64,000 nucleotides of DNA from a virus. Its lineage: Duplodnaviria > Caudoviricetes. The notes beneath the pieces are model-generated. The model saw only the letters and a list, made by a program, of their open reading frames with translations, searched no databases and was not told where the DNA came from. The stretch is taken from IMG/VR virus record IMGVR_UViG_3300037493_003061, positions 789-64,788 of that record, one strand, 5' to 3'. Shown here one piece after another: positions 4,522-59,764 of the stretch (positions are counted from its first letter, which is position 1; each line of letters starts with the position of its first letter). The translations under genes and the position numbers were made by a program.

Positions 4522-6999
4522 TTAAAAATCAAATTTTATTACAAACTGTTGAATCCCTTGTCTTGGAGTCGGAGATTGTAGTTTTGATATAATCATAAGG
4601 TCGTCACTGGAATCGTAAAGGGCAATTTCAGTTATATATAAAGGTTTACCATTAACCCAACTAGGATTTGAACTTGCTTGGAACTCCGCATCCCCTAAAT
4701 TAATTTTATATTTCATTTCATATATCGTTGCCTGTACGTCAGTTTCAACTGTACCATAGAAGTAATATTCATCACCAAAATTTAATTGTTGACCTGTAAA
4801 ACTTTTAGGTGTTAATTCAATATAATCCGATAAATCATAAATCGGAGCAGCATCGTATAAATCTTTACTTATAACAAAAGTAGTGCCTGTTAATCCTTCC
4901 TCAGTTATATGCCCATTAATAGTTGTTGCAGATAATAAATCCGTATAGTCAATTACTTTCCATTCAGTAGGTTCAGGTCTTCCATTACCAATCACTTTTT
5001 GACAAATAATTTCAAATTTATCTGCGAAGAATCCTGTCGGTAAATTACACACATCAGGACAAAGTGTTGTAGTCGTAGCAACATAGTTACCAATTGTTGT
5101 CGTTGTCGTCACCGGTGAATATGTTTTATAATTTAAACACCCAAACTCACCACCAAATCTCACAGAAACATTTTGAGGTCCAATATCTAAACAAGATAAA
5201 TTAGGACCTTGTATTTTAGTATAATAATTACAATGTAACGAATTTGTAAAAGAATTTTCATTACCCAATCTATAAGTAATGTATAAGTATTCAGTATTAC
5301 CCGTTAAAATCCCCTCACTTGATTGATTTGATGAACCGCAAGTGTTTGGTGTGGTCAACGCCACTTTAGGTGCCGGTAATGTCCAATTTCTATTTGATTT
5401 ATATGATAACGATGCAATTATTTCTTCATCGTCAATAATAACAATTTTATGGTCAGGAAACACCTTACCAATTCTATTTGGTAAATTAGTACTTGGATTT
5501 GGGTTATTATCCCATAAGTTATAATAACGAATTCCAGGCGTGTTCATATCAAGATTTTTCTTAGACTCAATATAACTAGGCTGAAATAAGTCAAAATCCT
5601 CAAACCCTGGAGGGTCAACCCAAAATGATTGTCCTTGACAACAGTCAGGATTTTTATGCCACATTAATGTTGGTAAGCTAATCTTGAAGTTTCTCGCTTG
5701 CCCAATAGTATCTTCAGGTAATGTTGGGTCTAAAGGTTCTAATGCAAATTTTTCACCATAATAAAAATCAATTGTCTGATTAGTATAATGAATAATAGCT
5801 ATCGCCTTTTGTTCTTCAGGTTGGACCTTAACAATCTCACCAAATGAATTATAATAATATGTATCGGTCGTTTCAGCACTTAAAGTTGGGTCAACATTGA
5901 ATGTTTGACCACTGTTTGACATATAACCTAAGTATTCTTTAGTTCCCATATATTGTACCGAACCAAAGTTAGAAAACCCTTTAACCACATCACTATCTAA
6001 CCCTGCAAAATCTTCAGACCAAGGAATATTCATATTCCATATTTTTACATCTAATTCATCACTATTACATAATGAACCAAAATTAATTACGTCAGTATTA
6101 TAATGATTTAATGGTGTTATACTATCATATAAATTAGTCATATTAGGTGGGTAAATAACCGTTCTTGCATAACATACACCCATTAAATCAGTATAATCAG
6201 GTGTTGGTCTGTCTAATGTAATAACGTTATTACACACGTCTAAAATTCTATAAGTTAAAATACCATAACAACTAAACATACTCATAACACAGGTTGTTTC
6301 AACAGGTGCTGGCGTCGGAGTTGGGAATGTAGGAGTCGGAGTTGGTTCAGGTGTTTCACAAGGTAATGTTTCCGTAGGTGTCGGAGTTTCAGTTGGCGTC
6401 TCAGTTGGAGTGGGTGTAGGTGTAGGCGTTAAACCACCACAATTACAATCATTTTTACCCCTACCATCATAATAAATAGTAATTAAATCACCAACTTGTG
6501 GTAATCTCACAATATTGGTATTACAACCCGAATAAACAACATTAATAGTATCACTACCATTCAATGTTGACATATCAACTATATAATTAGAATTTATAAC
6601 ATGTTTATTATCCGTAAACGCACTCCAGTATGTGAAGTTATCAATAGTTACACCCGTAAAAAAACCTCTTGGTTCCGCACGGTTATAAATAGGACTTGAA
6701 ATAGAATCCATATATGGTATACCATACGTATTACCATTAAATCCTTTCACATAATATGGATATTTTATATTCTGTTTGTTTGATTGGGGGGAACCACTTG
6801 AATTCTGAGCATTAAATGCCGGTTCTAAAATCATTGTTTCAGATTGATTGTACGATGCGTCCAACCCATTATAAGAAACCTCACTATCACCAATTTGGAA
6901 ATAAGAAATGTTAAAATTACCCTGTGATAATTTCTCCCTACCTGTATCAGTTAATCTACTGTTTAGTAAAGCTGACGTATTTTTTAATATATAACTCAT
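4522..6999 (-). CDS. Baseplate/tail-fibre attachment (collar-like) structural protein with Pro/Thr linker
   Basis: N-terminal LTDTGREKLSQG..ISYFQIGDSEV and C-terminal YITEIALYD...IISKL..P resemble tail-collar/fibre-base domains; PTPT and poly-Thr inserts. Confidence 0.55.
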   Translation of the reverse strand: MSYILKNTSALLNSRLTDTGREKLSQGNFNISYFQIGDSEVSYNGLDASYNQSETMILEPAFNAQNSSGSPQSNKQNIKYPYYVKGFNGNTYGIPYMDSISSPIYNRAEPRGFFTGVTIDNFTYWSAFTDNKHVINSNYIVDMSTLNGSDTINVVYSGCNTNIVRLPQVGDLITIYYDGRGKNDCNCGGLTPTPTPTPTETPTETPTPTETLPCETPEPTPTPTFPTPTPAPVETTCVMSMFSCYGILTYRILDVCNNVITLDRPTPDYTDLMGVCYARTVIYPPNMTNLYDSITPLNHYNTDVINFGSLCNSDELDVKIWNMNIPWSEDFAGLDSDVVKGFSNFGSVQYMGTKEYLGYMSNSGQTFNVDPTLSAETTDTYYYNSFGEIVKVQPEEQKAIAIIHYTNQTIDFYYGEKFALEPLDPTLPEDTIGQARNFKISLPTLMWHKNPDCCQGQSFWVDPPGFEDFDLFQPSYIESKKNLDMNTPGIRYYNLWDNNPNPSTNLPNRIGKVFPDHKIVIIDDEEIIASLSYKSNRNWTLPAPKVALTTPNTCGSSNQSSEGILTGNTEYLYITYRLGNENSFTNSLHCNYYTKIQGPNLSCLDIGPQNVSVRFGGEFGCLNYKTYSPVTTTTTIGNYVATTTTLCPDVCNLPTGFFADKFEIICQKVIGNGRPEPTEWKVIDYTDLLSATTINGHITEEGLTGTTFVISKDLYDAAPIYDLSDYIELTPKSFTGQQLNFGDEYYFYGTVETDVQATIYEMKYKINLGDAEFQASSNPSWVNGKPLYITEIALYDSSDDLMIISKLQSPTPRQGIQQFVIKFDF

Positions 7000-7029
7000 A
7001 TAATATTTTTTCTTTTTTTATTCGTATAG

Positions 7030-8376
7030 TTAATTACTATAATTTGTTTGAATTAAACTACAACATGTACAATCAACTAAATGTGAATTAACTATGAACG
7101 CATAATTACTAGTAAATAATGCCGAACAACATCCAGGAAATTGGCCACGACAATCTAATGTATAATCTCTAACCACCTTTACACTATAATTACTAGTTGT
7201 TGTGAATTCCAAATTTTGATATGTAAAGTTATAACCTGTCATATACATAGTATTAAATGAACATGAGTTAAGCACATTCGGTCCACTCGTTTCTGTAGTA
7301 TTATTAATACCAATATTTGGTACTCCGTTATTTAAAACCACAGGTGTAAAGGTTGAAGTCGCAGAATTTATATTAGGTGTACGAGAAAAATCACCATGAA
7401 GTTCTAAATCAAAAACTATTTTAACCCCAACAGGTAAACTAGGCGTTACCGTTAATGGGTATGTATACTCATATGAAGTATTACTTAATTGAACCACTAA
7501 TGGTGCTAAAAATGATATAGTGTATGTCGTTATTTGTTGACTATTAAAGACAATATTACCAGATTGAGAAACCACAATATTATTCGTAGAATCTTTAATC
7601 TGAGGTGTATAAGGAACATTAGAACATAAATTTGAGAATAAAGGACTTGACCCCCACGTTATACCCCCATTTATTGAATATTGATATGGTGGGACTCCAC
7701 CACTACCTTGTATAGTTATTGACGCATTACAACTCGTACATGTTGGGTCATTTTTACTTACACTTAACTTTAAATTATCAACATTAACACATACACCTTC
7801 GTTCACCGTAACAATTCCTTCATAACCTAAAATTAACCACCCATTAAATGGTGGGTAAGCCGGATTATTATTAATAATTGTTAAATTGTTTAACGTGTCA
7901 ACTAACTCCCAACGATTATCAACATTATCCCAAACAATAGTGTACAATTCATCATCAGAAATCCAACTTTGTTTATTATTTACAACCCCATTAGGATTAA
8001 AATGAATGGATAAATTCACATGACCAACATTTCCAACATAATTAATAATCATACAGAAATCATAGGTTATTATAGGTAATGTAGTTGTAGTAGTCGTTGT
8101 TGTTGGAATAAGCGGACCTGTTAACACACAAATAGTATTGGCGGTAAAATCACCATAATAATCAACAATTGTTGCGGGATATGAACCCACCGATAAATTA
8201 TTAATTACAAATGAACTATTCCCATTTCCCCAAGTAATATTGTAAGGAGGTGTTCCACCTGTTACAATTAAAGTTGCTGCACCATCAGACGTATTTTGTC
8301 CACTAGGATTAGTAACTTGACATGCAACCCCAAGTGGGAAAATTACAATAGGTTGACACTCGTTATTTTCAGGCAT
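7030..8376 (-). CDS. SprB-repeat-containing fibre/adhesin-like protein
   Basis: DGAATLIVTGGTPPYNITW...NLSVGSY and NDPTC..CNASITIQGSGGVPPYQYSI repeats; poly-Thr linker. Confidence 0.65.
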   Translation of the reverse strand: MPENNECQPIVIFPLGVACQVTNPSGQNTSDGAATLIVTGGTPPYNITWGNGNSSFVINNLSVGSYPATIVDYYGDFTANTICVLTGPLIPTTTTTTTTLPIITYDFCMIINYVGNVGHVNLSIHFNPNGVVNNKQSWISDDELYTIVWDNVDNRWELVDTLNNLTIINNNPAYPPFNGWLILGYEGIVTVNEGVCVNVDNLKLSVSKNDPTCTSCNASITIQGSGGVPPYQYSINGGITWGSSPLFSNLCSNVPYTPQIKDSTNNIVVSQSGNIVFNSQQITTYTISFLAPLVVQLSNTSYEYTYPLTVTPSLPVGVKIVFDLELHGDFSRTPNINSATSTFTPVVLNNGVPNIGINNTTETSGPNVLNSCSFNTMYMTGYNFTYQNLEFTTTSNYSVKVVRDYTLDCRGQFPGCCSALFTSNYAFIVNSHLVDCTCCSLIQTNYSN

Positions 8377-17184: not shown

Positions 17185-18354
17185 TTAAGTTTTAACGATA
17201 TTGTAAAACTTATATCCATACGTCATAAGTTCACCGATATTATCAATTTCATTTAACCTTTGAACTCTCTCATAAGCACTAACCTTACCTCTATCAATGA
17301 AAACATCACTTTGTATTTCCGGCTCATCAATAACATTTAATAAGACTTCATTTTTTGTTAAACCTAAACAAACTATTGTATCTGAAGTAATACCTGACGA
17401 TTCCACAACAAAAATTGTCGTACCGTCAACATAATCATAGTAATCAATATCATTAATTGTATAGGCGGTATAAGTGTTTGACGCGTCAGGTCCCCAATAT
17501 GTTCCAATATTTCCTGACGTACCTGTTACAGGCACACCTTTTTTAAATTTACCATCATATAAATTAGCTTTATTACCATAAACTTGCAACCCATTAACAT
17601 TTGATGTTGTATAACCAGAAACAATTATAGGATTACTTGATGAGTCATAAATATCTAAATCACAATTAGAATCACCACTAAAAATGTAATCATACATAAT
17701 TGGTGTTCCCGACCAATTCCCTCCGGCAGGAATAAAATAAGCGGTACCTTTAGGATTTGTTATCGTGGCCGCCGAATAAGGTACTGTTATATCTTTTTTA
17801 ATGACATTATAACCCCATGGGCTCATGCCTGACATACTAATAGTGTAATTACCACCCTGAACATAAGTATGACCATAATGATTAGGTGAGAAGTTATTAA
17901 TCGTTTGGGTTATCCCATCCCCCCAATCCACTTTATAATCGGAAAATTTTAAATAACCCAAAGATTGCGTATCTGAAGTATTATAAAAATAATATTCATA
18001 GGGGTTCAATGTTGTTGACGAAAATAAAAAATTATTCATCACATCTTTTTGTAATACCGCACCATCAAAGGTTGAGTAATATCCAATATCAATACATGTT
18101 TCACTAATAAAAATAGGTATTGTTAAACCAGTTAATAAAGACGAACCATTAGTACCACCTGAAAGAATTTCAGTCATTGATGAATAAACATACGTTTGTC
18201 CTGTATAATTTTTAGTTACGGCACTTGTATATATATCACAACAAATTTCCACGTCAAATTCATCATTATACGAATCTCCCGTGTAATTAATTAAAAATAT
18301 ATCACCGTTTATAACTTCAGGCGATATTCTTATATTATATATTCTATCATCCAT
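17185..18354 (-). CDS. Virion structural protein with PKD-like domain
   Basis: YKVDWGDG...HTYVQGGNYTISM PKD signature. Confidence 0.6.
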   Translation of the reverse strand: MDDRIYNIRISPEVINGDIFLINYTGDSYNDEFDVEICCDIYTSAVTKNYTGQTYVYSSMTEILSGGTNGSSLLTGLTIPIFISETCIDIGYYSTFDGAVLQKDVMNNFLFSSTTLNPYEYYFYNTSDTQSLGYLKFSDYKVDWGDGITQTINNFSPNHYGHTYVQGGNYTISMSGMSPWGYNVIKKDITVPYSAATITNPKGTAYFIPAGGNWSGTPIMYDYIFSGDSNCDLDIYDSSSNPIIVSGYTTSNVNGLQVYGNKANLYDGKFKKGVPVTGTSGNIGTYWGPDASNTYTAYTINDIDYYDYVDGTTIFVVESSGITSDTIVCLGLTKNEVLLNVIDEPEIQSDVFIDRGKVSAYERVQRLNEIDNIGELMTYGYKFYNIVKT

Positions 18355-19169
18355 TATGGGTTAACATATTCATACCATTTTATGGGACTACCCGTCCCGA
18401 TTCTATTACCTGAATAATCGTAAAGTTTATAAGTTTTACTATTATAATCCAAAACAACCTTATTATAAAAAAATTTATCATTATCAAAATTAAATTTATT
18501 TGGTAATGATGATTGCGGTGTCGTCATCATTCTAACATAAACACCTTGTTTAGCATCAAAGAATTTAACCGTCATATAAAAAGTATCTAAATCAACAAAC
18601 GTTTTTGATTTTAACCAATAATAGAAAAACCCTTCCCTAACACCACTAGAACCCAGTGAGGGTAAATAATCTAACGTATAACTAGGTTTATTAATTTTCA
18701 CATTTTTAATATATGTTGATAAATCAATAATATTAAAATCACTTTTATTTGAAGGTAGGATAACTGTAAAACTATTAACTTGTTTAATACTATCACGACT
18801 ATCATAGAAATCTAATTTAAAGAACGATTTCAAAAATGGTTTAGACCTAATATACAAATCCGAAACACTAAACCCTTCTGACTCGTAACTAACATTCCAA
18901 TTATTAATAGTTGACGCCGTGACATTAGTCGGATTTCCCGAATAAAAATAGAATTCATAATTTATCTTGGTTTCTTGATATTGTCCATAAGAATCGTGAG
19001 CAAACCTAATCACCTCAAAATCATCAGGTACACCAGTGACAATCTCAATTACCTCATCTTGATATACATCAATACTTTCATCCCTACCTAAGAAATCCCA
19101 CTGCATTTCTATCGGTATTGTAATACTTTGATTAGTACCAGGTACTGTAAATCTATATTTATTATTCAC
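18354..19169 (-). CDS. Putative virion structural protein
   Basis: Overlapping start/stop with neighbours; aromatic beta-rich sequence. Confidence 0.5.
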   Translation of the reverse strand: MNNKYRFTVPGTNQSITIPIEMQWDFLGRDESIDVYQDEVIEIVTGVPDDFEVIRFAHDSYGQYQETKINYEFYFYSGNPTNVTASTINNWNVSYESEGFSVSDLYIRSKPFLKSFFKLDFYDSRDSIKQVNSFTVILPSNKSDFNIIDLSTYIKNVKINKPSYTLDYLPSLGSSGVREGFFYYWLKSKTFVDLDTFYMTVKFFDAKQGVYVRMMTTPQSSLPNKFNFDNDKFFYNKVVLDYNSKTYKLYDYSGNRIGTGSPIKWYEYVNP

Positions 19170-20961
19170 AATTATCAGTTGTTGGTTCCGCCACTACGGT
19201 ATCGTTTATATTATCATAATTACTTCCCTCACCAATTAATCTAAAAATAATATCTCGGTAAGGGTAATGTGTACCATTTAAAAATGGGTAATCTACACCA
19301 TTATTATTTGTGTCAACATAACCATATGGGTACATATCTCTCCAAATAAATTTGTTTTGCAACGTTGAAAAATAAGAATAGTCAGGTAATCCAACAATAT
19401 TTTTAGAATCACCTTCCTCAATATAATCTGAGAACGTCTTTATTTCTAGTGAGTAATGTGGTTTATAATAATAACCTTTGGCACTATTCCCAAATACTGA
19501 TGAAGGTTTAACCCCAATATTAAAATAATACGGATTGAGTTTAAATTTATGATACATATCCGAAATTACTCTTTCAATTTGTTCATAGTTATTCCACTCA
19601 CAATAATCACCATCAATTGTGTCTCCACTACTTAGTGGTTCCACATAAGTAAATGGTCTATTCGGAACCCCTAATGGTGTTGTATAAGTACCCAAAGGTA
19701 AATTAGTGTCGGAATTAACATTCGTATTATCCCACCAAGAACTCGGTGTATTACCTGTCATAGTAGTCGGGGGTATATTAAATCCCCACCCTTGTTTTAA
19801 ACCATAAAAACCACCAGGTTTACTAAGACCAAAAGTCCAACCCATATACCCTTTCCAAACCACAGTAAAAAATAATTCAGATATTGGTCTAAAATGGTTA
19901 TCACGTAATGGTTTAATATCAATATCTTCGTTAAAACTTAAATTATAAACACTATTCCCTTGTTTTAATGAAACCCTTGATTGTTTATTTGGGGTATATG
20001 TTGATTTTTCTAATCGTTTAACTTTGTTAAATATTTGTTGTTCAAATCCAGTTTTAGTTAATACTGAATAATCTTCTTCAGTCAATATTTTATGTTTTCT
20101 AACATAATATTCGGACATAGTATCACCACTATTAGTAATATCTATAATACGTTTAAACGTACCTGTATTACCCGAATTAAATGTCGTACCAGTAAAACCA
20201 ACATCATAAATACTAAAAATAAATTCATCACTACCAAAATACGGGTCACCCAATGAATAAACTTGGAAAGTATCTTGCCCCGAATAATTAATACTTAATT
20301 TAACATATTCACCAACCGATAAACCATGAGTCATCGGACATCTAAATGAAACCACTGTTTGGTTTTGGTCAGTTGACCTATAAACAATAAATGGTAATCC
20401 ATCCGACGCCACCCAATTTAATGTATTATTAGAACGAATATCTAATGCCGACATTGGTTGCGTTTTATTATTATCATAGACATAACTCACGTACACCCCC
20501 CAATTATAAGTTGTCGCACTTTTATTAACAAAGAAATTATGTATTTTATTTGACGAATCAGGAATAGTATAACCCGAAATATTATTATCAGGTCTCATAA
20601 AGTCAAATTCATAAAATTGGGGAAATCCTGAATAACTATCAACCGGATTATTGGAACAAAGATTACCAATAAGTTCATATATATTTTCATAATATAAACT
20701 TGTTTGAAACGGATAATATTTAGTTGTTCCCGAATAAACATTATCAAATAATAATGAAATCTTACTTGTTGGTCTAAAAATAGTTGACGCTTGTCTTTCA
20801 TCATCATACAATTGTTCTAATTGCACGGTTAATGTTCTATCAAACTCAATATTTTCTTTAGCGGTTTGTACTAAAGGAACTTGAAACAATAAATTAGTGT
20901 TGGGCGATGATTTATATCTTAAAGACCCTAAAACAACCCTATTTTCAATTCTACTACCCAT
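19162..20961 (-). CDS. Putative virion structural protein
   Basis: Coupled ORF in the baseplate cluster; HGLSVGEYVKL beta-barrel-like motif. Confidence 0.5.
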   Translation of the reverse strand: MGSRIENRVVLGSLRYKSSPNTNLLFQVPLVQTAKENIEFDRTLTVQLEQLYDDERQASTIFRPTSKISLLFDNVYSGTTKYYPFQTSLYYENIYELIGNLCSNNPVDSYSGFPQFYEFDFMRPDNNISGYTIPDSSNKIHNFFVNKSATTYNWGVYVSYVYDNNKTQPMSALDIRSNNTLNWVASDGLPFIVYRSTDQNQTVVSFRCPMTHGLSVGEYVKLSINYSGQDTFQVYSLGDPYFGSDEFIFSIYDVGFTGTTFNSGNTGTFKRIIDITNSGDTMSEYYVRKHKILTEEDYSVLTKTGFEQQIFNKVKRLEKSTYTPNKQSRVSLKQGNSVYNLSFNEDIDIKPLRDNHFRPISELFFTVVWKGYMGWTFGLSKPGGFYGLKQGWGFNIPPTTMTGNTPSSWWDNTNVNSDTNLPLGTYTTPLGVPNRPFTYVEPLSSGDTIDGDYCEWNNYEQIERVISDMYHKFKLNPYYFNIGVKPSSVFGNSAKGYYYKPHYSLEIKTFSDYIEEGDSKNIVGLPDYSYFSTLQNKFIWRDMYPYGYVDTNNNGVDYPFLNGTHYPYRDIIFRLIGEGSNYDNINDTVVAEPTTDNCE

Positions 20962-44900: not shown

Positions 44901-45206
44901 ATCTAAAGAACCTTGACCAGTTATTTCATTAGTATAGGCATTATCTAATAATCCTTTACCACCAGGATTTAGAAAATTAATTGACGCTAATGAGACTGTT
45001 TGGATAGCGTCGCCATTTGCCGACCCTACCGCTAATTTCGTTCTCGGTAATACTCTACACTCTAAGTTAGCGTACATTACCAAATTTTCTTGTTTTACAT
45101 ATCGTTCTTTCACATTACCATCTAAATCAACCACCTTATTCGGGTCAACTATTGTGATATTATTGTAATCAAATTCAACTAAAATATTTTCTATTTTATC
45201 TACCAT
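38907..45206 (-). CDS. Giant baseplate hub protein with possible C-terminal lysozyme-like/GH73 domain
   Basis: Hub-like N-terminus (LLGMTSINI, PYPLFHLTIKGYYG), hub-like C-segment (VSMMGNALIQP..F..Y.I..V.H.I), and terminal ALYVESANG...ENNYAGV. Confidence 0.55.
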   Translation of the reverse strand: MVDKIENILVEFDYNNITIVDPNKVVDLDGNVKERYVKQENLVMYANLECRVLPRTKLAVGSANGDAIQTVSLASINFLNPGGKGLLDNAYTNEITGQGSLDGKGVNQPTQKQIFNPKNKEDWYIRQTTNSNGKVGATDNGLLGMTSININQDLSFMPRVDIQLEDVKGRALFEAGDNSPYAAFFNLPYPLFHLTIKGYYGKAVKLALMLQSFSSRYDSGDGNFKISLNFYTYKYTILNEISMGYLVATPHMYKSRLKVQTQEGGPSNFSNVDNQIVEKGYQKVKEMYNEYKSKGLVPDDFPELTIVQMRDNIENFVKNTLDSFTKENLTPLDNLDKYQTTLNDFEKDVFLYLSGGKGSWFDKYMDRTNFLILKDGTKVYTYKKEFSTPQSRTNIKTELFGGLLGKYNPLLNNNITVGLNGGYKINGVDKKCTVKNSISENTFRATNVIPDQVDFGKIYKQYKKLNNEPTEDDKLNLKNELIKAGIFDKSDDKIFGFKIISTEWFKFEGPNTFMELTGKMSKDLKVIRGEIETALTEALAKLLVSKDNGIGFTPTIRNVLAVIFANGEAFLRLLDEVHTKAWDKRDDKIRKDAIFDKEISNASPDTKDVNVNSNIPVYPWPQYIVATSGEDGHEKYEIQYPGDSKLVSKTKGFLFDVWPEIEFVEEFIKGFVERTTPPADPTEGNNELTETQRITLNAVEYPASNEIFGNKEEVKFFYELFERLMIYTYYTKLSRVYGTSEIDIMAKVIADVESNNVLKSLSNSNPFLILKIKNYALNSQNIIPTLKHISNDGIGQSWQNYIRGIFNTVYLKNNTTDSPFEIMEVTSGKDITISLNTEKEMSDYISASTKSNVNTFTDLYPFTSLTWEQSKMGNGDKIGNTSFAFNTTKVLNFNTTKKLITNYNSDDNAILDKRPFSNFLGTNISVGGPRIKYGVLKDFYDYRTPNRQFLTEGNLKYNNYSGNVVSNQTVSMLNTPYFVNAIQNGVDNFRNSDLYPYKAAAYLFINSLPLATLREKYKTDDGKGVSTELDYIFATMKKFGAIHRVPYAWILKYGSIWHRYKSYVETGTDMLETSWSGFSYVKNYDPVTNNPAKDYSLTINGGNYDIILEKNTSITNSVSSLVNVGFYPKTINDFNVFYQGFMLYSGYTSSDIQKGITSGLTLNYVDSAIINKSNNLLNSTVAAPRDLMVIPWTIHVKTLDDKSFFLMPSEGSILNQTENECFKPDGTQSIEITGNTAVYDGSVRSFWAAPNYGYFDINKLVKPSPSQYLKEIFSGQSGQENFSINGKGDQYSEIEEMFSVFEKEVLDMFETEFLNYSKSIYDSLDGDYLRNFQGMMRNLAKIPKTTGDTTNELVLKMQDEQVKNFNLYITNFLNYNKLIKYGNPSSYDKKLFYTFSNLSIVDPYTFGNYTIQTPNALPPNTTLATSITTYPDEWKALKTYVGFSTIDKLVYDNNGSYITDFFIDNNVSFDVLNIKNFAPLIKIYATAKLKDNTYNSVKFLTSMTQYIREIDSFQDKVFNNVMITLNKKLPNVNNSPENQIASDLEGPQTKIELWESFKSLNDKWISGNDFKVKTLFEDVLLLDRASRNIGDKVLVDVYKLKNRLQNILDSPKVSMLVFIQTLLQENNFVVHNLPSYVNFYNVQDVSKNPKPKPEGSLEFANTLFGTFMNVDYRESGPKMVCYYANKNSEQLDLKDNVDYRYRNDAFDLRRVDNPLVENQVGKKDWDKSNKVVGFNVDIGPQNQSMFYGFMVDQKNSSSTVESLEVLNQTANQAGNRGGSTQSLSLYNLYKNRSYTCTVSMMGNALIQPTMYFNLRYVPMFNGPYMIQTVSHSITQGSFETIITGIRQPTASLPKIDGYIQTLRTNLLKSVIENNKKDRIAKEKSTKNADGTAKSQQEKIQAISGGDKELTQPQSCKPVSPYDTYHDITPTINNSTFSKVKHDLRNVISSDNINESNLQYVVFAALYVESANGDLKMTAYENNYAGVTLSGGKWGYASKFFDNNKQFYCLTSANDSTTLPYAIFNDLYNHLKFVVARFKDRMSGVEVTASSIAKFLIINNLTINGPTMKSINVYDSYDKTKLKNLENKVQKSIDVFNATN

Positions 45207-50350: not shown

Positions 50351-52216
50351 TTAAACTAGTAATCCGTTGTTAGTTACCGTTTCTTTTAATTTTTTGTTTA
50401 AGGCTTGTAATGTTTCGGTTTTATTTAAAATTTCCATTACTTTAGTTTCTGACATATTACCTGAATCAATCTTAATTGTTAATGTAATATCGTGTGTATT
50501 TTTATTTTCACTAACCGTACCATTTGTTTGAGTATTCATAGGTTGATTCAACATATTTAATTTCTCCAAAAATTCGGGACCTTTCGTCATTGAAATGAAA
50601 GAATCTTCAGGTAAAAATTGTATTTCTTGCCCAGGTATTTTAAGAGTGTCTTGACCTATTTTGTGTGTTGTTTCAGTTTCCCCTTCCTTACCATCAGTTT
50701 TACCATTAGAAAAATCAAAAAATCCTGATAATTCTGTTTTTGCTTTTTCTAACGTACCAACAAAAGATGTATCAATATATTTACCTAAGTCTGTAAATGT
50801 TTCACTTAATTTTCCCATATTAACATTACCCGACTCAAAGGAATCTAATAAACCTTTAGTAGTAATATCAATTTGTTCTCTAAGTTGAGTTGTTGTCGTT
50901 CCGGCCTTTTTATCGTCAAATATATTTGACAATTTTTGTGACCCTTCTTTAGTTTTTTTCAGAACCTTACTTGCGGCTTTTGAACCGGCTAACGCATATC
51001 CAGGTTTTTCAGAGATAGTTTTTAAACTAGCTGCCATTGTTTGTAATACACTTAATTGGTCTTCTGCTAATTTTGTAATGTCTTTAGGTTTTTGAGATTC
51101 AAAAAATGCCGTTTTCTGTTCGTCATTCATCGCACTCATTTCCATCATCGCCTCTTCCATACTCATCGTCTTACTACCTTCATCAGTTTTCATGGTAATT
51201 TTATATTCACCATCTTTACCCATTTCAGACATATTAGCTATCATTGTCTTTTCCTCTTCGGTAAAGTTTCCAGTGAATCTAATTTTTGACATTTTATCAT
51301 TAAGTTCAGCACTACTTAACGCCATTTTAGCCAATGTACCTTGAGTCATACCCATAGCCTTTTCAACCTCCTCCATTTGTCGTTTAGCACCAGGTAGAAT
51401 TTCAAATTGACCCTTTTCATTTAATGTTGCAAATTGTTTTGACATTTCAACAATTTGATTTTGTAATTCAGCTGGGTCATTTTGAGCTAAATCCATTAAA
51501 CGAAGTGGGTCTAATAAATCAGATTGCGCAATACCTAATCTTTGTAATGATGCCGCCATTTCAATTGCTGATTCAGGATTGAATGCCTTATCCATAGTAT
51601 TTCCAATATCTCTAATGCTAACCCTCATATTAATAGCTTGTGCCGCCATTTTAGCAAGACCGTCAACACCCCCTTGGAATGTATACTTATTCATAAGGTC
51701 AAGATTTGATGCAACTTCAGCACCAACTTTTTGAGCACTAACACCAATTTCTCTGGCCCTATCCATAATTTTTTGGATTTCACCACTAGATTGATATAAA
51801 GATATACCAACATCTTTTAAATCGGTAATTAATGAATCGGCCATTGGCCCCATCACTTCTTGGGCTGCAAATAAATCCTTATAAGCTTCACTAGATACTA
51901 CTAAATTACGTCCAAAAGAATCGGAAACTTGGTTCTGTATTTTAAGGATAGCGTCAAATCCGCCACCTAATTTAGTAACTTCAACAACCGCATCAGACAT
52001 ACTGATTTTTAAGTTATCTATTTGGTCTCTACCTTGACCAAATTTTTTGATAACACCAGTTGTTTTTTCATCAACATCTTCAATAATTTTACTAATTTGT
52101 CTATAATCAATTGCGTCAGTAAATGCTTTACCTAAACTTTCACCAATATTACTTAAACCATCAGATATATTTTTTGTAGTTTTACCAATACCATCAGCAC
52201 CCTCTGTTCCTGCCAT
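50351..52216 (-). CDS. Tape measure protein
   Basis: Alpha-helical A/M/Q/K-rich 621 aa, directly downstream of the tube and chaperone genes. Confidence 0.7.
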   Translation of the reverse strand: MAGTEGADGIGKTTKNISDGLSNIGESLGKAFTDAIDYRQISKIIEDVDEKTTGVIKKFGQGRDQIDNLKISMSDAVVEVTKLGGGFDAILKIQNQVSDSFGRNLVVSSEAYKDLFAAQEVMGPMADSLITDLKDVGISLYQSSGEIQKIMDRAREIGVSAQKVGAEVASNLDLMNKYTFQGGVDGLAKMAAQAINMRVSIRDIGNTMDKAFNPESAIEMAASLQRLGIAQSDLLDPLRLMDLAQNDPAELQNQIVEMSKQFATLNEKGQFEILPGAKRQMEEVEKAMGMTQGTLAKMALSSAELNDKMSKIRFTGNFTEEEKTMIANMSEMGKDGEYKITMKTDEGSKTMSMEEAMMEMSAMNDEQKTAFFESQKPKDITKLAEDQLSVLQTMAASLKTISEKPGYALAGSKAASKVLKKTKEGSQKLSNIFDDKKAGTTTTQLREQIDITTKGLLDSFESGNVNMGKLSETFTDLGKYIDTSFVGTLEKAKTELSGFFDFSNGKTDGKEGETETTHKIGQDTLKIPGQEIQFLPEDSFISMTKGPEFLEKLNMLNQPMNTQTNGTVSENKNTHDITLTIKIDSGNMSETKVMEILNKTETLQALNKKLKETVTNNGLLV

Positions 52217-53265: not shown

Positions 53266-53754
53266 TTAGTAAATCAATACACATCTATCAGGACGTAGAG
53301 TTGCATTAATCTCAGCAACACCATCCGTACTATATCCTAAAGAACCAAAGTCAATATCGGATAACCAAGCACCTTGAAGTAACCATTTTTCAATAACTAC
53401 ACCTGTTGGGTCCAACATTTCTAAGTAAACATCTTTTTTATAACCTGCGGCATATCCCATACGTCCAGTAACTGATTCAGCACATAAACGAACCCATTCC
53501 ATTAAAGCTTGTGATGCTGAAGGACCGATAGGGTCACGGAATTTAACACTGATAGTTCCCCATTCAAATCTACCCGCAACATATGTTGAAGTATTTAAGA
53601 AGTCAATTTTAGTTGTACCGATAGTTAATTTAGGTCTAGAAGTTGATTCAACGAACCATTCATTTATCCCTAGTGAAGAATCAAACCTTAATATAAACCT
53701 ATTTTGTCTTTTCGGTTCATAAGGTAGCGGCATTTTCATTAGTAAATCAGCCAT
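53266..53754 (-). CDS. Tail tube protein (T4 gp19-like)
   Basis: EPKRQNRF, YVAGR..W..I.V...DPI, YKKD..LEMLDPTG.VIEKW.L.GAW. Confidence 0.9.
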   Translation of the reverse strand: MADLLMKMPLPYEPKRQNRFILRFDSSLGINEWFVESTSRPKLTIGTTKIDFLNTSTYVAGRFEWGTISVKFRDPIGPSASQALMEWVRLCAESVTGRMGYAAGYKKDVYLEMLDPTGVVIEKWLLQGAWLSDIDFGSLGYSTDGVAEINATLRPDRCVLIY

Positions 53755-53788
53755 ATTTATTTATTTTAATTTTTGTTTATTTTTTTAT

Positions 53789-54743: not shown

Positions 54744-54764
54744 ACTTTTAAATATATCGTAAAT

Positions 54765-54794
54765 AAAAAAACCCTCTTTAATCAGAGGGTTTTT
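54765..54794 (-). terminator. Terminator after the endonuclease-like gene
   Basis: aaaaaccctct-ttaatc-agagggttttt. Confidence 0.75.
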
Positions 54795-54795
54795 A

Positions 54796-56316
54796 TCAAT
54801 AATTAATTTCAAATTTTAGTGAACCACAATCCCAAATTCTATCATAACCTTTCTCAATCATAATAGACCATTCAGTTTTTTCATTGGAAAATCCTTCTTT
54901 AACTAATAAATCTTTTCTAAAATTAAATCTATGATATCTATGTAAATAACAATTATTTTTAATATACCAATAATTTGGTGGTGTTTGATGTACATAAGTA
55001 AAACCATTTTTATAATACACGGTATTTTCGGGATTTAGACCTGACCAACGAATATCAGCATAAGTTTCTATTTTTTTAGGGTTAAATGTTTTAACAAAAA
55101 ATTTCAATAATTTAGAAAAACCACCAACAACGGTTATATTTTTTTTATTACAAAATCTAATTAATTCATATTCGTCAACTGTATTATTTTTGTTACCTAA
55201 AACTTTTCTTTTTTTACCAAAAGTCATTAATGACACTAATTCATTATTATAAAATAAACCAAATCTATGTTTATCTATACTGTTACCTTGTAAATGGTTT
55301 TCGTTTAAGAATTGTGTTGAAACTTTTTTATTAACTTCATTAATTTGACATTTTCTACCAAATATTAAGTCATTAGTTTTTAACATACTTGATAACCTTG
55401 AAAAGACAATATCAGTTTTTAGTATTATTTCATCCTCAAAAAATTGTAATAATTTAACATTTTTTTGATAAGATAATTTCATTTTGTCTAAATGATAATG
55501 TCTATCTTTTTCACCGGCATTTTCTGAATGATAATAATTACCATTTATTTCAATACCTAAATTGAATTCTGGTAAGTATAAATCTATTTCTTTACCATCT
55601 AAAATTTTTCTATCATTATCAATATGTTTAATATTATTTTTATTTAGATAATCTCTAACAATTTCTTCTAATTTAGAATTTTTAATGATGGGAAAACATT
55701 TTCGGCATATCGGTATTTTACCTGAGCCTAATATAGTACTTGAAAATATATTTTCACAAATATTACATTGAAAACTATAAGACATTGAGGTATTACCACT
55801 TTTATTAACCGAGTACTCATCAAGTAATGTTAAATTACCTTCACCTAATCGTGGTATTAAATGAGTTAAATGTTTTTCTTTAACAGTATTTTTTAATTTA
55901 TTAACCATATTATGGTCGTACATTGGATGTTCAACACCATATTTTTCAATAAAATTTTTTTTATAATTTAACTTAAATTCTTTTGTATCAAAAAAACTTT
56001 CAGCTCCGTATTTAACCTGTAAACTTTCTTTTGACTTTAATAATCTATTTTTTTTATTATCCTCTTTTTTAGACCATATTAAACGACATTCGTGAGAACA
56101 CATGGTTTTATTATGTTTTTTTCTTTCAATAAATTCTACACCACATTGTACACAATTTCGTTTTTCTCTAACTGATTCGTCTTTTGGTTTACCCAATAGA
56201 TTATTTTTTTTAGCATAACCAAAATAACAACTTCTATTACAGAATTTTTTATCTCTGTGTTTATAATCAGTGGTAAATATATTATTACAATTTTGACATT
56301 TTAAATCTATTTTCAT
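54796..56316 (-). mobile_element. Homing-endonuclease-like gene (Zn ribbons + Vsr/DUF559-like PD-(D/E)XK nuclease + GNAT/Mom-like C-domain; Hef-like)
   Basis: Several CxxC pairs, KYG repeats, EIDLY...GIEINGNYYH, ELIRFC...GGFSKLL...YAD.RWS...Y.KNGF; probable start MKIDLKC at 56316. Confidence 0.65.
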
Positions 56317-56437: not shown

Positions 56438-59400
56438 TTAAATATTTTCAAATGACGCACCTGTTGGTGTGATATAAAAGGTGATATCAATAAATTCTAA
56501 CGATTTCGTTGGTTTTATGTATATTTTACCTGTCATTTGGTTTCTATCTAAATCGGCAGAATCTGAAGAAACTGTTACACGGAAATCGTATAAACCTCTA
56601 TCTCTTCGGATACCATCCAATATTGGATTCACAGCATTTAAGAAATCTTGTCTTACTTTTTCATCGTTTTGTTCAAACAACAATCTAACTGAAACCGCTG
56701 AAATTAATTTACGAGCTTGTAATAACAATCTTCTTACGTTGATTCTATCAAGAGCAGATTCTTTAATCTGAAGAGTTTTGTTACCCCAAATAACTGTACC
56801 AACATCTGAGAAGGTTGCAATTGGGTTAATTCTTCCTTTGTAAAGAACATCTCTATCTTCTTGAGTCAATTTCTTACGAGCTTTGATTGAACTCACGATA
56901 CCTCTCGTATAACCCGCAGCCGCGAACCAAGGGAACGCTACGTTATCCGTTAACGCTAAGTTTTTAGTGACCTCACCTGTTGGTGGTAAGTAGATTTGTG
57001 TGTTATTAACAGTATCTCTTACTAAAATCCATGGGTAATAAGTTGCTGTGTAGTTAGAATCAATTCCTGAAGTCTCCAAATTATCAACCGCTTCTTGTGG
57101 GTAAATTAAATCTGTTGGGTCACCTAATGAAGGTGTAAACATGTTATAATCAGGTGTTGTTGTGATATAGACAGAATCCGCTCTATTGAATTCTATCATT
57201 TCAATAGCACTACCAACTAAATCTGAGTTATTAACATAATCAATACCAGGTGTTACGAATACATTGATGTTAACCGCTTCAGGATTAGAGAATGTTTGAA
57301 TTCCTAATAAGTAAGCGTAGTAATCGGTATTTGCGTAATCCACTCTGTTTTGACCAACAGTTATTTGTTTAAATGCACCCCAACCAGTAGCTGTAGGATA
57401 TTTTAATGTTGGACAAGAACCTTTTAAATAACCAGTTCTACCTAACACATATCTGTCTGAGTTTGTTCTATATTCTCTATATATGTCCCATCCGTCAAAA
57501 CCACCACCAACTAAGAATGAGAATTTTCTAGCATATAATCTGTAGTATGGATTTGATTCATTGTCAGGGTCTGATGTAAATTCGGCATCACCACAAACGA
57601 ATTCAGGAGTACCACTCGTTACAAACGAATTTGGTATAGTTATAACACTAGCGTTTTTATCCATATGGAATCCTTTAGTTCTATAAGACCATTCAGGACC
57701 TGTTATCGCATCACATAATGATGTATTTGGTATTTGTTTACCTTTATATTGGTAGAAATCAGTATCTATACCAACAGTATTTGAGATACCTAAGTAAGTT
57801 CTTCTAACATTATCACCAGGACTTGTTGAAACCGCGTTTGAACCTGTTGATAAACCAAATGGTGGGTCAAAAACAACTTCACCAGGATAATCGTATTTAG
57901 ATTTAATTAATGGGAACGGTGAACGACTTCCTGCATATTCTCTTGTTGTGTATCCTTGGAATCCACATGGTAATGCGTCAATCGGTGCGTCTTCATTAAG
58001 TTCAACCATTACATATTTAGAATTCAATTGGTATTCACCATCAGATGTACCAACTTTTTTACCAATGAAATTGTTATCACCAGGGTTCATATTACAATTA
58101 GTAAATTTCTCAATAACAACAGGATTGTTATCCGTATCAAAGAAATCTCTAACTAATACGTCAAATGTTCCGTTGTTAAACGATATATTTGCAATAGAAA
58201 TTTTTACTTCAGTGTTAGCATCATTACCATCAGAAATGGTGATAAATTTAAACAAGTTAAATACTTTAGAACCTCTCAATTCAGATACAACCCATGGAGA
58301 TGATGGTGATTGATATTTTTCTAAGTAGAAACCAATTGAACTAGTACTTTCACTTCTTGCAGAATCTAAAGCATTTAACTCACAATTTAAACCTCTAATA
58401 TAACCTTTTCGGTATGCGTTAATTAACAAAGTTGCATATGATTCCTCAATAAATAATGGAACAGATTCTTTATCTTTACCAAAATTAGATTTACCAAAAA
58501 CTTTACTAAGATATTTTGAGTCTGAACTAGATAACGAAGTTTCAAAGAATAAATTAGTACCATCAGATTTAGTTACATTTAAACCAAACGTTGAGAATGG
58601 GTTTTTAGTAACACCTGAATAACCACCTGTACACACCATTTCAACATCAGTTAATCCTGATACTTCATAAACAGCACCATCGTCGGTACCATAAGTAGCT
58701 AAACCTCTTGAACGCATTGTCGCAATAACCAAATCATCGTAATCTGTGTAAGCAGTTCCTGAATACACATAAATTCTACCCATTAACGTACCCGTATAAC
58801 AATGAACAGGTTTTGCTGTTGTAGTTGTTGTAGTTGTAGTTGGAACAGGTGTAACACAAGGATTAGTTGTTGTGGTAGTTGTTGTTGGTGCTATTGTTGT
58901 TGTTGTTATAATAGGTACTAATGTTAAATCAGTAACAATTGACCAAAAAGAATAACCTGAATAAACACTATTACCAACATTATCAAATAATGCATAGTAC
59001 CAAGAATCATTTTTAGGGGCTGTGTAATCAGCACTTAATGAATCAATACCATCAACATCAAATACGTTAGTTGAACCAGTAAAAGCTGATAACCCAACAT
59101 ATGCTGAATAAGGTATTGTACCATAATAATTAATTGAACTTAATTCTGTTGATGGTTCATTTAAAATATTAAAAATTTGAAGTTTAATGTCAGTATTTAA
59201 TGTTGAAATACTGTTATCAAAATTTTCATATGGTAAATAAAGTTTAGTTGCAATTTCGTCAGGAAATTGTGTTGGGTCTAAGAACGTGATACCGTCAATA
59301 CTATTAGTACATCCTGAGAAATCAATTGCAAAATCAATCGTTTTGAAATCAACACATTCAGTTACACAATCAACTGTTGTTGCACTTTCACAATAAAAAT

Positions 59401-59764
59401 CAACCGTTGATTTATCAACGTTTGCTTTAGTTAATATAGACCATGAAGGTCCCGCGTCGTACCCCGATAATCCTAATATTCTAGTCACAAACAATTGATT
59501 AGATTGTTGTAAATAAGATTTCGCAATGTAAGACGCTTCATACTTAGGAATTTGTGTATTCACAAATTTTTCAGGTGATGTACCCCCAAAATACGATGTA
59601 AACTCATCAAAGTTAGTGATAAAAATAGGTTCAAATGCGGGACCTTTTAAAGTTTCCCCTACTATACCTAATGTAGTAACACCAACACTCTGAGCTACAA
59701 AACTCAAATCAACCTCGGATGTATAAACTCCGGGTGATACGAATACTTTACTGTTTGTCGCCAT
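56438..59764 (-). CDS. Contractile tail sheath protein with large insertion domains
   Basis: FVSPGVYTSEVD, GETLKGPAFEP, YTATYYPW, PWFAAAGYTRG, INPI, WGNKTLQ, DRINVRRLL, FEQND. Confidence 0.97.
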   Translation of the reverse strand: MATNSKVFVSPGVYTSEVDLSFVAQSVGVTTLGIVGETLKGPAFEPIFITNFDEFTSYFGGTSPEKFVNTQIPKYEASYIAKSYLQQSNQLFVTRILGLSGYDAGPSWSILTKANVDKSTVDFYCESATTVDCVTECVDFKTIDFAIDFSGCTNSIDGITFLDPTQFPDEIATKLYLPYENFDNSISTLNTDIKLQIFNILNEPSTELSSINYYGTIPYSAYVGLSAFTGSTNVFDVDGIDSLSADYTAPKNDSWYYALFDNVGNSVYSGYSFWSIVTDLTLVPIITTTTIAPTTTTTTTNPCVTPVPTTTTTTTTAKPVHCYTGTLMGRIYVYSGTAYTDYDDLVIATMRSRGLATYGTDDGAVYEVSGLTDVEMVCTGGYSGVTKNPFSTFGLNVTKSDGTNLFFETSLSSSDSKYLSKVFGKSNFGKDKESVPLFIEESYATLLINAYRKGYIRGLNCELNALDSARSESTSSIGFYLEKYQSPSSPWVVSELRGSKVFNLFKFITISDGNDANTEVKISIANISFNNGTFDVLVRDFFDTDNNPVVIEKFTNCNMNPGDNNFIGKKVGTSDGEYQLNSKYVMVELNEDAPIDALPCGFQGYTTREYAGSRSPFPLIKSKYDYPGEVVFDPPFGLSTGSNAVSTSPGDNVRRTYLGISNTVGIDTDFYQYKGKQIPNTSLCDAITGPEWSYRTKGFHMDKNASVITIPNSFVTSGTPEFVCGDAEFTSDPDNESNPYYRLYARKFSFLVGGGFDGWDIYREYRTNSDRYVLGRTGYLKGSCPTLKYPTATGWGAFKQITVGQNRVDYANTDYYAYLLGIQTFSNPEAVNINVFVTPGIDYVNNSDLVGSAIEMIEFNRADSVYITTTPDYNMFTPSLGDPTDLIYPQEAVDNLETSGIDSNYTATYYPWILVRDTVNNTQIYLPPTGEVTKNLALTDNVAFPWFAAAGYTRGIVSSIKARKKLTQEDRDVLYKGRINPIATFSDVGTVIWGNKTLQIKESALDRINVRRLLLQARKLISAVSVRLLFEQNDEKVRQDFLNAVNPILDGIRRDRGLYDFRVTVSSDSADLDRNQMTGKIYIKPTKSLEFIDITFYITPTGASFENI

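Follow-up and report, generated by a model that had tools for sequence, protein, structure and literature searches.

One of the closest known parallels is bacterial. According to PMC12871550, no bacterial O-glycosylation motif other than that of Bacteroidota, D-(S/T)-(A/L/V/I/M/T), has yet been defined at the sequence level, and its over-representation in a defined class of proteins marks the system. The phage motif considered here resembles it in length (three to four residues), in containing S or T, and in being over-represented in one protein class. It differs in that the Bacteroidota system is periplasmic, has non-cytoplasmic targets and requires Asp at -1, a position from which D is excluded here.

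Phages provide a second comparison. Phage virion proteins are made and assembled in the cytoplasm. In mycobacteriophages, phage glycosyltransferases reportedly act on virion proteins made there; the acceptors are said to be C-terminal extensions, rich in S and T, on capsid and tube subunits, with the transferase genes beside the structural genes. Neither this type of acceptor nor this gene placement holds in the present case. A further likeness is found in T4 (gp34/gp37) and the cultured Flavobacterium phage immuto, where S/T/G tetrapeptides are, as here, enriched three- to fourfold over several tail proteins. What sets the cases apart is the order of the residues: G-T-x-T, S-G-T and S-G-S in the immuto tail module (GT.T 36 versus 11.2 expected, SGT 27 versus 8.2, SGS 24 versus 6.2); S-T-x-G in the outer proteins of T4 (ST.G 15 versus 4.6); and here a core of φ-[ST]-G-x-T-φ. 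The immuto motifs occur in many proteins, and local shuffling does not abolish their excess.

A third comparison is with the SprB repeat (PF13573) of Bacteroidota adhesins. Two proteins treated below belong to this family and carry the motif at fixed repeat positions, v-S-G-G-T-x-P-Y and n-L-S-A-x-T-Y, the second of which may resemble a tyrosine corner. Unlike these two, most of the motif-rich proteins have no SprB match, and the motif also appears in PKD-like and LRR-like contexts. Bacterial SprB proteins were sought as a control; the search gave phage-type relatives only.

Motif excess in outer virion proteins

The window (the whole stretch of DNA analysed, 64,000 nucleotides) contains a T4-type contractile tail module, with PHROG matches for sheath, tube, hub, and gp6-, gp25- and gp53-like proteins (Table 1). 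No cultured relative was found among 50,697 phage records. A single 3.9 kb contig that falls in an Aquiluna MAG says nothing about the host.

Table 1. Proteins of the window discussed in the text, with motif counts seen and expected
Coordinates	Strand	Protein	Motifs (seen vs expected)	Family match
4522..6999	-	825-aa outer protein	7 vs 2.6	
7030..8376	-	448-aa SprB-repeat protein	3 vs 1.7	Pfam SprB, 39.2 bits
9976..12870	-	964-aa fibre-like protein, SprB-type Ig repeats	19 vs 7.0	Pfam SprB, 80.4 bits
12870..16229	-	1119-aa outer protein	7 vs 3.2	
17185..18354	-	389-aa baseplate-peripheral protein, tandem Ig/PKD-like domains	12 vs 1.64 (z 8)	
19162..20961	-	599-aa protein, adjoins gp7-sized protein	8 vs 1.5 (z 5.6)	no known family
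20961..26204	-	1747-aa protein, directly downstream of gp6-like gene	10 vs 4.8	
26275..28113	-	gp6-like baseplate wedge	0 vs 1.9	PHROG 219, E 3.3e-24
28669..31086	-	NrdA	0 vs 1.8	PHROG 84, E 2.3e-165
38907..45206	-	2099-aa protein, unknown family	10 vs 4.7	no PHROG match
50351..52216	-	621-aa protein, tape-measure position	0 vs 2.4	no family found
53266..53754	-	tail tube	0 vs 0.43	PHROG 4542, E 1.8e-27
56438..59764	-	tail sheath, 1108 aa, large insertion	11 vs 5.3	PHROG 23, E 2.5e-55

The outer tail and baseplate proteins carry S/T-G-x-T several-fold above chance. Pooled over 12 outer virion proteins, [ST][GA]x[ST] occurs 92 times, against 34.1 +/- 5.5 in whole-protein shuffles (0 of 1000 reach 92; the per-protein expectations likewise come from 1000 whole-protein shuffles). 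A sharper definition, [ST]-G/A-x-T, gives 68 against 17.9 in the same proteins. In distant relatives the count is 274 against 48, and the signal is both hydroxyl-specific and order-specific. Enzymes and other proteins (n = 14) stand at expectation, 6 versus 6.1, and inner structural proteins (n = 8) are mildly depleted, 5 versus 11.2. An initial reading of the sequence alone had the motif absent from internal proteins: zeros are indeed found in NrdA, the gp6-like wedge, the tube and 50351-52216, but the depletion overall is only weakly significant (P = 0.028), and the zero in the tube means little because the protein is too short. Gp6-like orthologues from seven further lineages contain 0, 0, 0, 0, 0, 0 and 1 motifs, where 1.2-1.7 would be expected in each. 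Gene order is the basis for regarding 50351-52216 as a probable tape measure, and the sole basis for putting 20961-26204 in the likely gp7 position.

The individual sites are largely as that reading described them: all 12 tetrapeptides of 17185-18354 are present in the order listed, eight are found in 19162-20961, and nine of the 10 sites assigned to the sheath insertion lie at residues 127-468, the remaining one at 1022. Family searches add little for the first of these proteins, which has no match in Pfam or PHROG, the Pfam PKD model also being silent.

Might the excess be spurious, a product of composition or low complexity, of a signal in the DNA, or of hidden paralogy? S, T and G are indeed more frequent in the outer proteins, and about a quarter of the hits (~22 of 92) fall in the two paralogous SprB-repeat proteins; even so, this explanation is very improbable. 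S/T/G content had been named beforehand as the control that might dissolve the pattern. That refutation fails, because 92 exceeds not only the global shuffles but also block shuffles of 10, 20 and 40 residues (37-39 expected, with a maximum of 56 in 500) and all 11 alternative orders of the same residue classes (27-55 in the 12 outer proteins). Global and local composition are thus ruled out. A DNA-level motif is ruled out as well, because the codons are diverse: nine different ones encode position 0, eight encode position 1 and ten encode +3. Composition-matched control sites, moreover, are half as conserved in the same alignments.

As for paralogy, 7030-8376 and 9976-12870 are the sole BLASTP paralogue pair in the window; the other motif-rich proteins have no similarity to one another at that level, where hidden paralogy is ruled out, and several different folds carry the motif. 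Outside the SprB proteins there remain 70 hits against ~25 expected (summed from the per-protein shuffle means). Both SprB matches exceed the Pfam gathering cut-off of 28 bits, and SprB is absent from the other eight outer proteins scanned with Pfam. In 9976-12870 many motifs sit at fixed repeat positions, in the contexts v[ST]GGTxPY, nL[ST]A.TY and D.TGC. The proposal that the motif was selected independently in unrelated proteins is overstated for the ~22 of 92 hits in the SprB repeats.

The excess is restricted to one group of phages. It is absent, for this residue order, from the outer proteins of T4; a 484 kb region from an uncultured phage shows no motif excess; and none is seen in PKD-repeat proteins (z -1.7 to 0.2 in 10 proteins of 957-4087 aa). 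Taken together, the data support the view that selection acts on the motif at the protein level and that the motif is specific to a phage clade.

Residue specificity, flanks and structural setting

One way to understand the motif is as a structural idiom: φ-[ST]-G-x-T-φ would recur as a clade-specific element in outer virion proteins rich in beta structure, within a group of uncultured jumbo myoviruses. This is the favoured explanation, with roughly an even chance of being right. Its carriers would be Ig/PKD-like and SprB-type domains, an LRR-like solenoid and fibre repeats. The motif would lie within or at the end of a beta-strand, with hydrophobic residues at -3, -1, +2 and +4 facing the core. 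Because core-facing residues at -3 and -1 would be followed by core-facing residues at +2 and +4, the geometry points to a one-residue register shift at Gly, in the form of a bulge or kink, and this would probably leave both hydroxyl residues on the solvent side. Modules carrying the motif may have been duplicated and exchanged within the clade; the idiom would therefore spread, and purifying selection would then hold it in place.

The flanks are consistent with this picture. Over 475 instances, hydrophobics are enriched at -3, -1, +2 and +4, K and R are scarce throughout -5 to +9, and at -1 the ratio is 0.0 for D and 0.2-0.3 for G, K and R. Hydrophobic, charge-poor flanks of this kind resemble a buried beta-strand and appear to fit strands better than exposed loops. 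An AF2 model of 17185-18354 (72 sequences, mean pLDDT 68; an earlier 32-sequence model with mean pLDDT 49 was discarded) places the start of seven of the 12 sites within a DSSP strand, three of them at the strand's C-terminal end. Strand-like flanks, the seven sites in strands, the fixed repeat positions and positional conservation all favour the structural idiom, as do the S/T/G idioms of equal strength in other phages and the lack of a genome-wide on/off switch (see below).

Other observations speak against the structural idiom. A generic turn or bulge would lead one to expect looser residue preferences than those observed. The enrichment at position 0 is confined to S and T (3.7-6.0-fold), N and D standing at 0.7-1.2; at +3, T alone is enriched (3.9-5.7-fold), against 1.3-1.5 for S and 0.35-0.75 for V and I. 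In ST-turns and Asx-turns, S or T at position i is interchangeable with N or D, which give the same turn; here the values are 0.87 and 1.2 for N-G-x-T, 0.74 and 1.19 for D-G-x-T. Homologous PKD-repeat proteins lack the excess, as do T4 outer proteins for this residue order, several folds and mutually non-similar proteins have it, new sites continually appear, three homologues are free of the motif, and the model shows no single structural position common to all 12 sites.

A second perspective supposes that the motif is a functional surface element: hydroxyl pairs beside aromatics would form weak glycan-binding patches, or the tetrapeptide would be a clade-specific recognition element for a fibre chaperone or assembly factor. 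The restriction of the excess to outer proteins agrees with this, as does the enrichment of Y at -1 (2.3-fold), +2 (2.0-fold) and +4 (1.9-fold). In Foldseek the closest fold to the 17185-18354 model is SGBP-B (7kv7), a Bacteroides surface glycan-binding protein; PKD domains are matched too (6aem and 4l9d, probability 1.00, target TM 0.70-0.75 over ~92 columns, in a region of pLDDT 83-92). The proposal nevertheless names neither ligand nor chaperone, and flanking aromatics, if they are core residues, cannot make a binding platform; it is quite unlikely.

Structural searches elsewhere returned less: ESM Atlas gave no structure, only feature matches at 0.76; there was no solved homologue for 19162-20961 or for the glycosyltransferase of one complete relative (G001), and only chance-level dynamin matches for 9976-12870. 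An LRR-like repeat in a relative bears recurrent motifs, in the form ..SG.T....P-TG.T...

Conservation and gain of sites

In orthologue alignments motif sites are kept in 51% of cases, versus 24% for composition-matched control sites. Of the 12 sites of 17185-18354, nine are each shared by 33 or more of 44 unique orthologues, and S and T interchange at conserved sites. The G001 orthologue of this protein lies at 128969-130144 of that genome. This family has nine common motif columns, versus 0-1 for control patterns, together with 62 rare columns, versus 29-49 for controls. In the 19162 family, eight sequences contain 28 distinct motif columns, versus 4-18 for controls, and one column is common to seven of the sequences. 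Orthologues of 19162-20961, at ~30% identity, have 5-13 motifs each against 0.9-1.8; those of 12870-16229 in distant lineages have 11-19 against 2.8-5.1; and the G001 orthologue of 4522-6999 has nine against 2.6. In one family of baseplate proteins the excess extends over more than 1900 homologues. Three homologues retain the fold-defining blocks without any motif, and new sites also appear in distant lineages.

A genome-wide on/off switch was considered and rejected. In one lineage (L107/L118/L135) the 17185 orthologue is motif-poor, with two motifs where 1.6 are expected, and the orthologue of the adjacent 19162 protein retains 5-8. A rank correlation over 19 lineage representatives was null (rho 0.03-0.24), a single representative being motif-poor.

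Glycosyltransferase genes and a possible sequon

A third perspective takes the motif to be a modification sequon: a phage glycosyltransferase acting in the cytoplasm would recognize φ-[ST]-G-x-T and O-glycosylate one of the hydroxyls, coating the environment-facing parts of the virion. This proposal, which comes from the initial reading of the sequence, is rather unlikely. It has the merit of explaining the strict requirement for a hydroxyl at both positions (N and D not enriched at 0, V and I depleted at +3), the S/T swaps at conserved sites, the appearance of the excess in unrelated folds and proteins with repeated gain of sites, and its confinement to outer virion proteins. There is also precedent for a sequon that leaves an enrichment signature, in the Bacteroidota motif as described in PMC12871550. 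The Bacteroidota sequon is a different one: the 12 outer proteins show no excess of D-[ST]-[AILVMT] (32 versus 39.0), a comparison in which a Bacteroidota host is an assumption.

Relatives encode candidate enzymes, namely glycosyltransferases and a GDP-sugar pathway. No glycosyltransferase was found among the window ORFs scanned (20 with Pfam, 30 with PHROGs), on a contig that covers 64.8 kb of an expected ~300 kb genome. Complete relatives of 260-320 kb encode a Glyco_tranf_2_5 transferase (PF13712) in five of five cases, versus none of 14 control genomes, and a GT2 enzyme and GDP-mannose 4,6-dehydratase in four of five each; in G001 one cluster, at 12.9-23.9 kb, also encodes a DegT aminotransferase, an Fcl-like reductase and a Fringe-like glycosyltransferase. 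A broader form of the sequon proposal builds on this: the ~300 kb jumbo-phage clade would run its own general O-glycosylation in the cytoplasm, with φ-[ST]-G-x-T as sequon, phage-made GDP-sugars and a conserved glycosyltransferase, and would thereby coat the outer baseplate, the fibres and the sheath decoration. This too is doubtful.

Several points weigh against a sequon. The glycosyltransferases lie outside the window, and in G001 they are ~60 kb from the baseplate module, amid early-type genes. Their presence does not discriminate, because the unrelated phage immuto also encodes glycosyltransferases and GDP-sugar pathway genes yet favours different S/G/T motifs; GT2 is found in motif-rich and motif-poorer records alike, and the motif-poorer G007 has glycosyltransferases. 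PF13712 homologues occur at 58 viral loci, apparently of the same phage group, so that motif and PF13712 are not decoupled. Among the papers listed, PF13712 figures only in connection with lipooligosaccharide loci and in surveys. The protein O-fucosyltransferase PF10250 is present in none of the five relatives, a result that is uninformative since the control search gave no match either. Against a sequon, too, are the hydrophobic flanks, strand-like rather than loop-like, and a repeat protein of 39% S/T in which the motif is depleted (5 versus 14.7). Thr/Pro-rich TPTNT-repeat proteins, more conventional as O-glycan acceptors, are also carried by these phages and could be the reason for the transferases.

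Each reading has its consequences. If the structural idiom is right, a tetrapeptide count separates exchangeable outer modules from conserved inner tail parts, and serves as a marker that flags fibre-like proteins without a family match. If the motif is a sequon, protein glycosylation in phages would be predictable from sequence throughout the clade, and both mass spectrometry and engineering would gain a defined peptide to aim at. Going by PMC12871550, it would then be the second sequence-defined motif, beside that of Bacteroidota, and the first known from a bacterial virus. None of the papers listed by the literature searches reports the motif, or a glycosylation sequon in phage structural proteins. 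On either reading, a hydroxyl- and order-specific signal of this strength merits a direct test.

Excess of the motif in outer virion proteins

A strong excess of the pattern [ST][GA]x[ST] is confirmed; it runs through the whole clade and is under selection. The sequence-only reading had described it as dense in external proteins and absent from internal ones, and every tetrapeptide that it named is present. Against 1000 shuffles of each protein, the 389-aa Ig/PKD-like protein at 17185-18354 (hereafter the flagship) carries 12 instances with 1.64 expected, the 599-aa protein at 19162-20961 carries 8 (1.5 expected), and the SprB-repeat, fibre-like protein at 9976-12870 carries 19 (7.0 expected); six more outer proteins reach z of about 2-3. 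Pooled over the 12 putative external proteins (10,047 aa), the described density stands at 92 instances against 34.1 ± 5.5, a count reached in 0 of 1000 shuffles. The claimed absence is weaker: inner structural proteins are depleted (5 against 11.2, P = 0.028, n = 8), but the motif does occur in them. Fourteen enzymes and other proteins lie at expectation (6 against 6.1). The gp6-like protein has no motif in the window and 0-1 in seven other lineages (1.2-1.7 expected in each), related sequences that are hence no independent trials.

One way to understand such an excess is as an artefact of composition or of local richness. Even when residues are shuffled only inside blocks of 10, 20 or 40, the expectation stays at 37-39 (maximum 56 in 500), so local S/T/G richness is not the cause; the 11 alternative arrangements of these residue classes occur 27-55 times in the 12 outer proteins. 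An artefact was rejected on these controls and is very improbable. In the other 23 window proteins the motif order occurs 10 times, against 12-26 for other orders. When all 'ab.d' patterns are tallied without preselection, Thr runs set aside, the top well-populated outliers are SA.T (16 against 2.6), TG.T (25 against 6.3) and SG.T (21 against 5.6). The motif is better defined as [ST]-[GA]-x-T, with 68 instances against 17.9 in outer proteins; among 91 instances, T:S at the last residue (+3) is 68:23 and G:A at position 1 is 62:29. The codons used are diverse, including both Ser families, and the signal therefore lies at the protein level. N-x-S/T is unremarkable in outer proteins (146 against 148).

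The contig and its relatives

The window makes up 64,000 of the 64,788 bases of one viral contig, at about 31% GC, with nearly all genes on the minus strand. The contig is collinear with positions 83,966-142,694 of G001, a complete record of 321,403 bp bounded by direct terminal repeats (protein identity 35-85%), and is therefore a fragment of a jumbo myovirus.

Features of the window and of the related record G001
Feature	Coordinates	Strand	Basis or remark
Tail sheath	56438-59764		PHROG match
HNH homing endonuclease, 526 aa	54796-56376	-	PHROG 3339, E 9e-106; between sheath and tube genes
Tail tube	53266-53754		PHROG match
Baseplate hub	52405-53163		PHROG match
gp53-like baseplate protein	45196-45522		PHROG match
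NrdA/NrdB, DnaB-like helicase, exonuclease, UvsX-like recombinase, SSB	28669-37851	-	PHROG matches
gp25-like baseplate protein	28120-28575		PHROG match
gp6-like baseplate protein	26275-28113		PHROG match
Thr-rich repeat ORF, TPTNT-type	1-3791 (G000:C1:1-4579, the window's own record)	+	open at contig start
Nucleotide-sugar/glycosyltransferase cluster	G001:C1:12908-23897 (loci L080, L081)	-	

The nucleotide-metabolism and replication block separates the gp6/gp25-like wedge genes from the remaining tail genes on the same strand, a placement kept in G001. The HNH endonuclease has no BLASTP counterpart in the collinear region of G001 and so looks like a mobile insertion; 61908-62615, with a NUMOD3 motif, may be another. 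Ten ORFs scanned in 4522-26204 (Pfam, PHROGs) gave nearly no family matches, apart from the SprB repeats of two proteins (9976-12870, 7030-8376) and a weak PHROG match in 4522-6999. The flagship has no match among 50,697 deposited phage records; clusters of metagenome-derived proteins contain 1,966 homologues. The sole genome-collection match, a contig of 3.9 kb placed in the bin of an Aquiluna MAG, does not establish a host.

The excess is specific to this clade. In 69 related loci (370,003 aa of redundant sequences) the motif order occurs 3169 times against 1081-1665 for five other orders, and distant relatives have 274 [ST]-G-x-T with 48 expected. Over the 282 ORFs of G001 there are 390 instances against 261, the excess lying in about 12-15 large plus-strand proteins (highest 35 against 10.4); the major capsid protein has 4 against 1.75. 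A Pfam scan of nine of the top motif proteins gave a single match, Laminin_G_3. In T4, the motif order occurs 35 times in thirteen outer proteins, against 21-64 for other orders, and over all 29 T4 proteins tested the observed and expected sums are equal, at about 49 each; in the 484 kb uncultured phage LR756508, 42 kb of sequence has 12 against 11.1. Ten giant PKD-repeat proteins homologous to the flagship's central domain give z of -1.7 to 0.2. That PKD-like domain (residues ~129-199; WGDG...HTY...G.Y) matches 5-37 tandem repeats in these metagenomic proteins of 957-4087 aa, for example P0138.

Conservation and structural setting

Of the flagship's 12 sites, nine retain the motif in 33 or more of 44 unique orthologues (44-94% identity). 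At these nine, S and T interchange at either end; three have an invariant G, and at the others, apart from the TAYT site (Ala), no fewer than 36 of 44 sequences have it. Across eight proteins, 62 motif sites keep their state in 51% of orthologues, and 126 control-order sites of those proteins in 24%; the motif is under selection. It also turns over: in eight 19162-20961 orthologues, which share about 30% identity across lineages, there are 5-13 motifs each, with 0.9-1.8 expected, in 28 distinct columns, 8 of them found in a single sequence only. Conserved columns number 6 against 0-2 for control orders in this family and 9 against 0-1 in the flagship's; distinct columns, 28 against 4-18 and 78 against 31-55. 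In the flagship's family, 55 of 62 representatives (250-600 aa) reach at least 3x shuffled expectation. Three (P0144, P0158, P0229) have no motif, with about 0.5 expected in each; unrelated residues hold the aligned sites, and the family's conserved blocks are intact. They contain 13.6-15.1% S/T, where most family members have 17-25%, and even their nearest viral loci share no more than 47% identity.

Position 0 shows an excess of S and T alone (window 3.7-4.1x, seven distant relatives 5.2-6.0x), N and D standing at 0.7-1.2. Position +3 shows one of T alone (3.9x and 5.7x); S reaches 1.3-1.5 there, V and I 0.35-0.75. Position 1 favours G (3.8-5.7x) and A (1.8-3.7x). Across 475 instances drawn from the window and ten relatives, there is a preference for hydrophobic residues at -3, -1 (Y 2.3x, L 2.2x, I 2.0x), +2 and +4, and for N at +5; K and R are depleted throughout, and at -1 D is absent and G, K and R stand at 0.2-0.3.

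The AF2 model of the flagship (72 aligned sequences, mean pLDDT 68; residues 110-200 and 245-325 mostly above 80) predicts a string of beta-sandwich domains, which Foldseek matches to PKD domains and to a surface glycan-binding protein of Bacteroides. Of the 12 motifs, seven begin within a DSSP strand in the model, including three at the C-terminal end of one; the other five fall in predicted coil or low-confidence segments. In 9976-12870, many motifs lie at recurrent SprB-type repeat positions (v-[ST]-G-G-T-x-P-Y, n-L-S-A-x-T-Y, D-x-T-G-C, [ST]-G-x-[ST]-C). In a distant relative, L103:18937-20841 has 28 against 6.4, within a periodic LRR-like unit (..v-S-G-x-T....P-T-G-φ-T..) in which S-G-x-T alternates with P-T-G-φ-T; L103:16605-18914 has 24 against 4.6, and BLASTP pairs neither of the two with a window protein. 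In G001:59954-62800 the motif recurs as [ST]-A-x-T-Y-x-N-L-P. Being fixed in these repeats, the motif owes part of its excess to repeat architecture, in more than one fold.

Proposed readings: structural idiom or modification site

One perspective, to which we give about an even chance, holds that the motif is a structural idiom of the clade's beta-rich outer proteins. It would account for the strand-like flanks, the fixed repeat positions and the positional conservation, and motif loss in one lineage is protein-specific, not genome-wide. Above all, other tail modules have equally strong S/T/G motifs of their own. The tail module of the cultured Flavobacterium phage immuto is as enriched, but in SGT (27 against 8.2), SGS (24 against 6.2) and GT.T (36 against 11.2), an excess spread over many proteins and robust to local shuffling; the whole module is 3-4x enriched in the three. 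Its 546-aa protein at 553-2193 (L137, vB_FspM_immuto_3-5A) has about five Ig-like repeats (..GLPTG[LV]TA..ITISGTPT..G.F.YSIP[LV]TG...).

The strict requirement for a hydroxyl, N/D and V/I being excluded, argues that selection acts on something more specific than a generic turn, as do the motif's occurrence in several folds, the repeated gain of sites and the fact that homologous PKD repeats elsewhere lack it. Another surface function is improbable, less so than an artefact.

A further perspective, the glycosylation sequon first proposed, is unlikely, if more probable than another surface function. The difference claimed from the Bacteroidota sequon is borne out: that periplasmic motif, D-S/T-A/L/V/I/M/T, needs its Asp at -1 according to PMC12871550, whereas the phage motif excludes D there, and D[ST][AILVMT], the motif of the assumed host, is not enriched in outer proteins (32 against 39). 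The literature as sampled gave no description of this motif or of a sequon in phage structural proteins; phage protein glycosylation is not the subject of PMC12386605.

In favour of a sequon, relatives encode glycosyltransferases and GDP-sugar genes. None of the 20 window ORFs scanned with Pfam or 30 with PHROGs matched a glycosyltransferase, on a contig of about a fifth of the expected genome. Among five large relatives (four at least 90% complete), a Glyco_tranf_2_5 protein of 470-560 aa is found in all five, against 0 of 14 control genomes, GT2 and GDP-mannose 4,6-dehydratase in four each, and a Fringe-like GT in one. The G001 cluster joins these four to PhoH, a DegT-family aminotransferase and, below cut-off, an Fcl-like reductase; a dUTPase and an exonuclease follow. 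This gene content shows that the clade makes and transfers activated sugars; it does not speak to the acceptor. Yet some 60 kb separate the cluster from the baseplate module; immuto has two GT2 and GT1-type matches (~50-59 kb) with different motifs at equal strength; and a GT2 match is present in record G007 too, whose lineage has a low motif ratio (1.2).

Virion glycosylation was reportedly the subject of a mycobacteriophage study. Thr/Pro linkers are more conventional O-glycan acceptors, and the Thr-rich repeat ORF, a mucin-like linker protein and candidate O-glycosylation target, is itself depleted in the motif (5 against 14.7). It has over 1500 aa of TPTNT/TPTKT-type repeats with interspersed globular segments, and 33% Thr (412 Thr and 158 Pro in 1262 aa); its G001 homologues (72245-74356, 50345-55642, 315695-321406) adjoin motif-rich proteins. 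One globular segment has a weak P_proprotein-like match. The only large plus-strand ORF in its stretch, it causes the GC skew of -0.44 over the first 4 kb.
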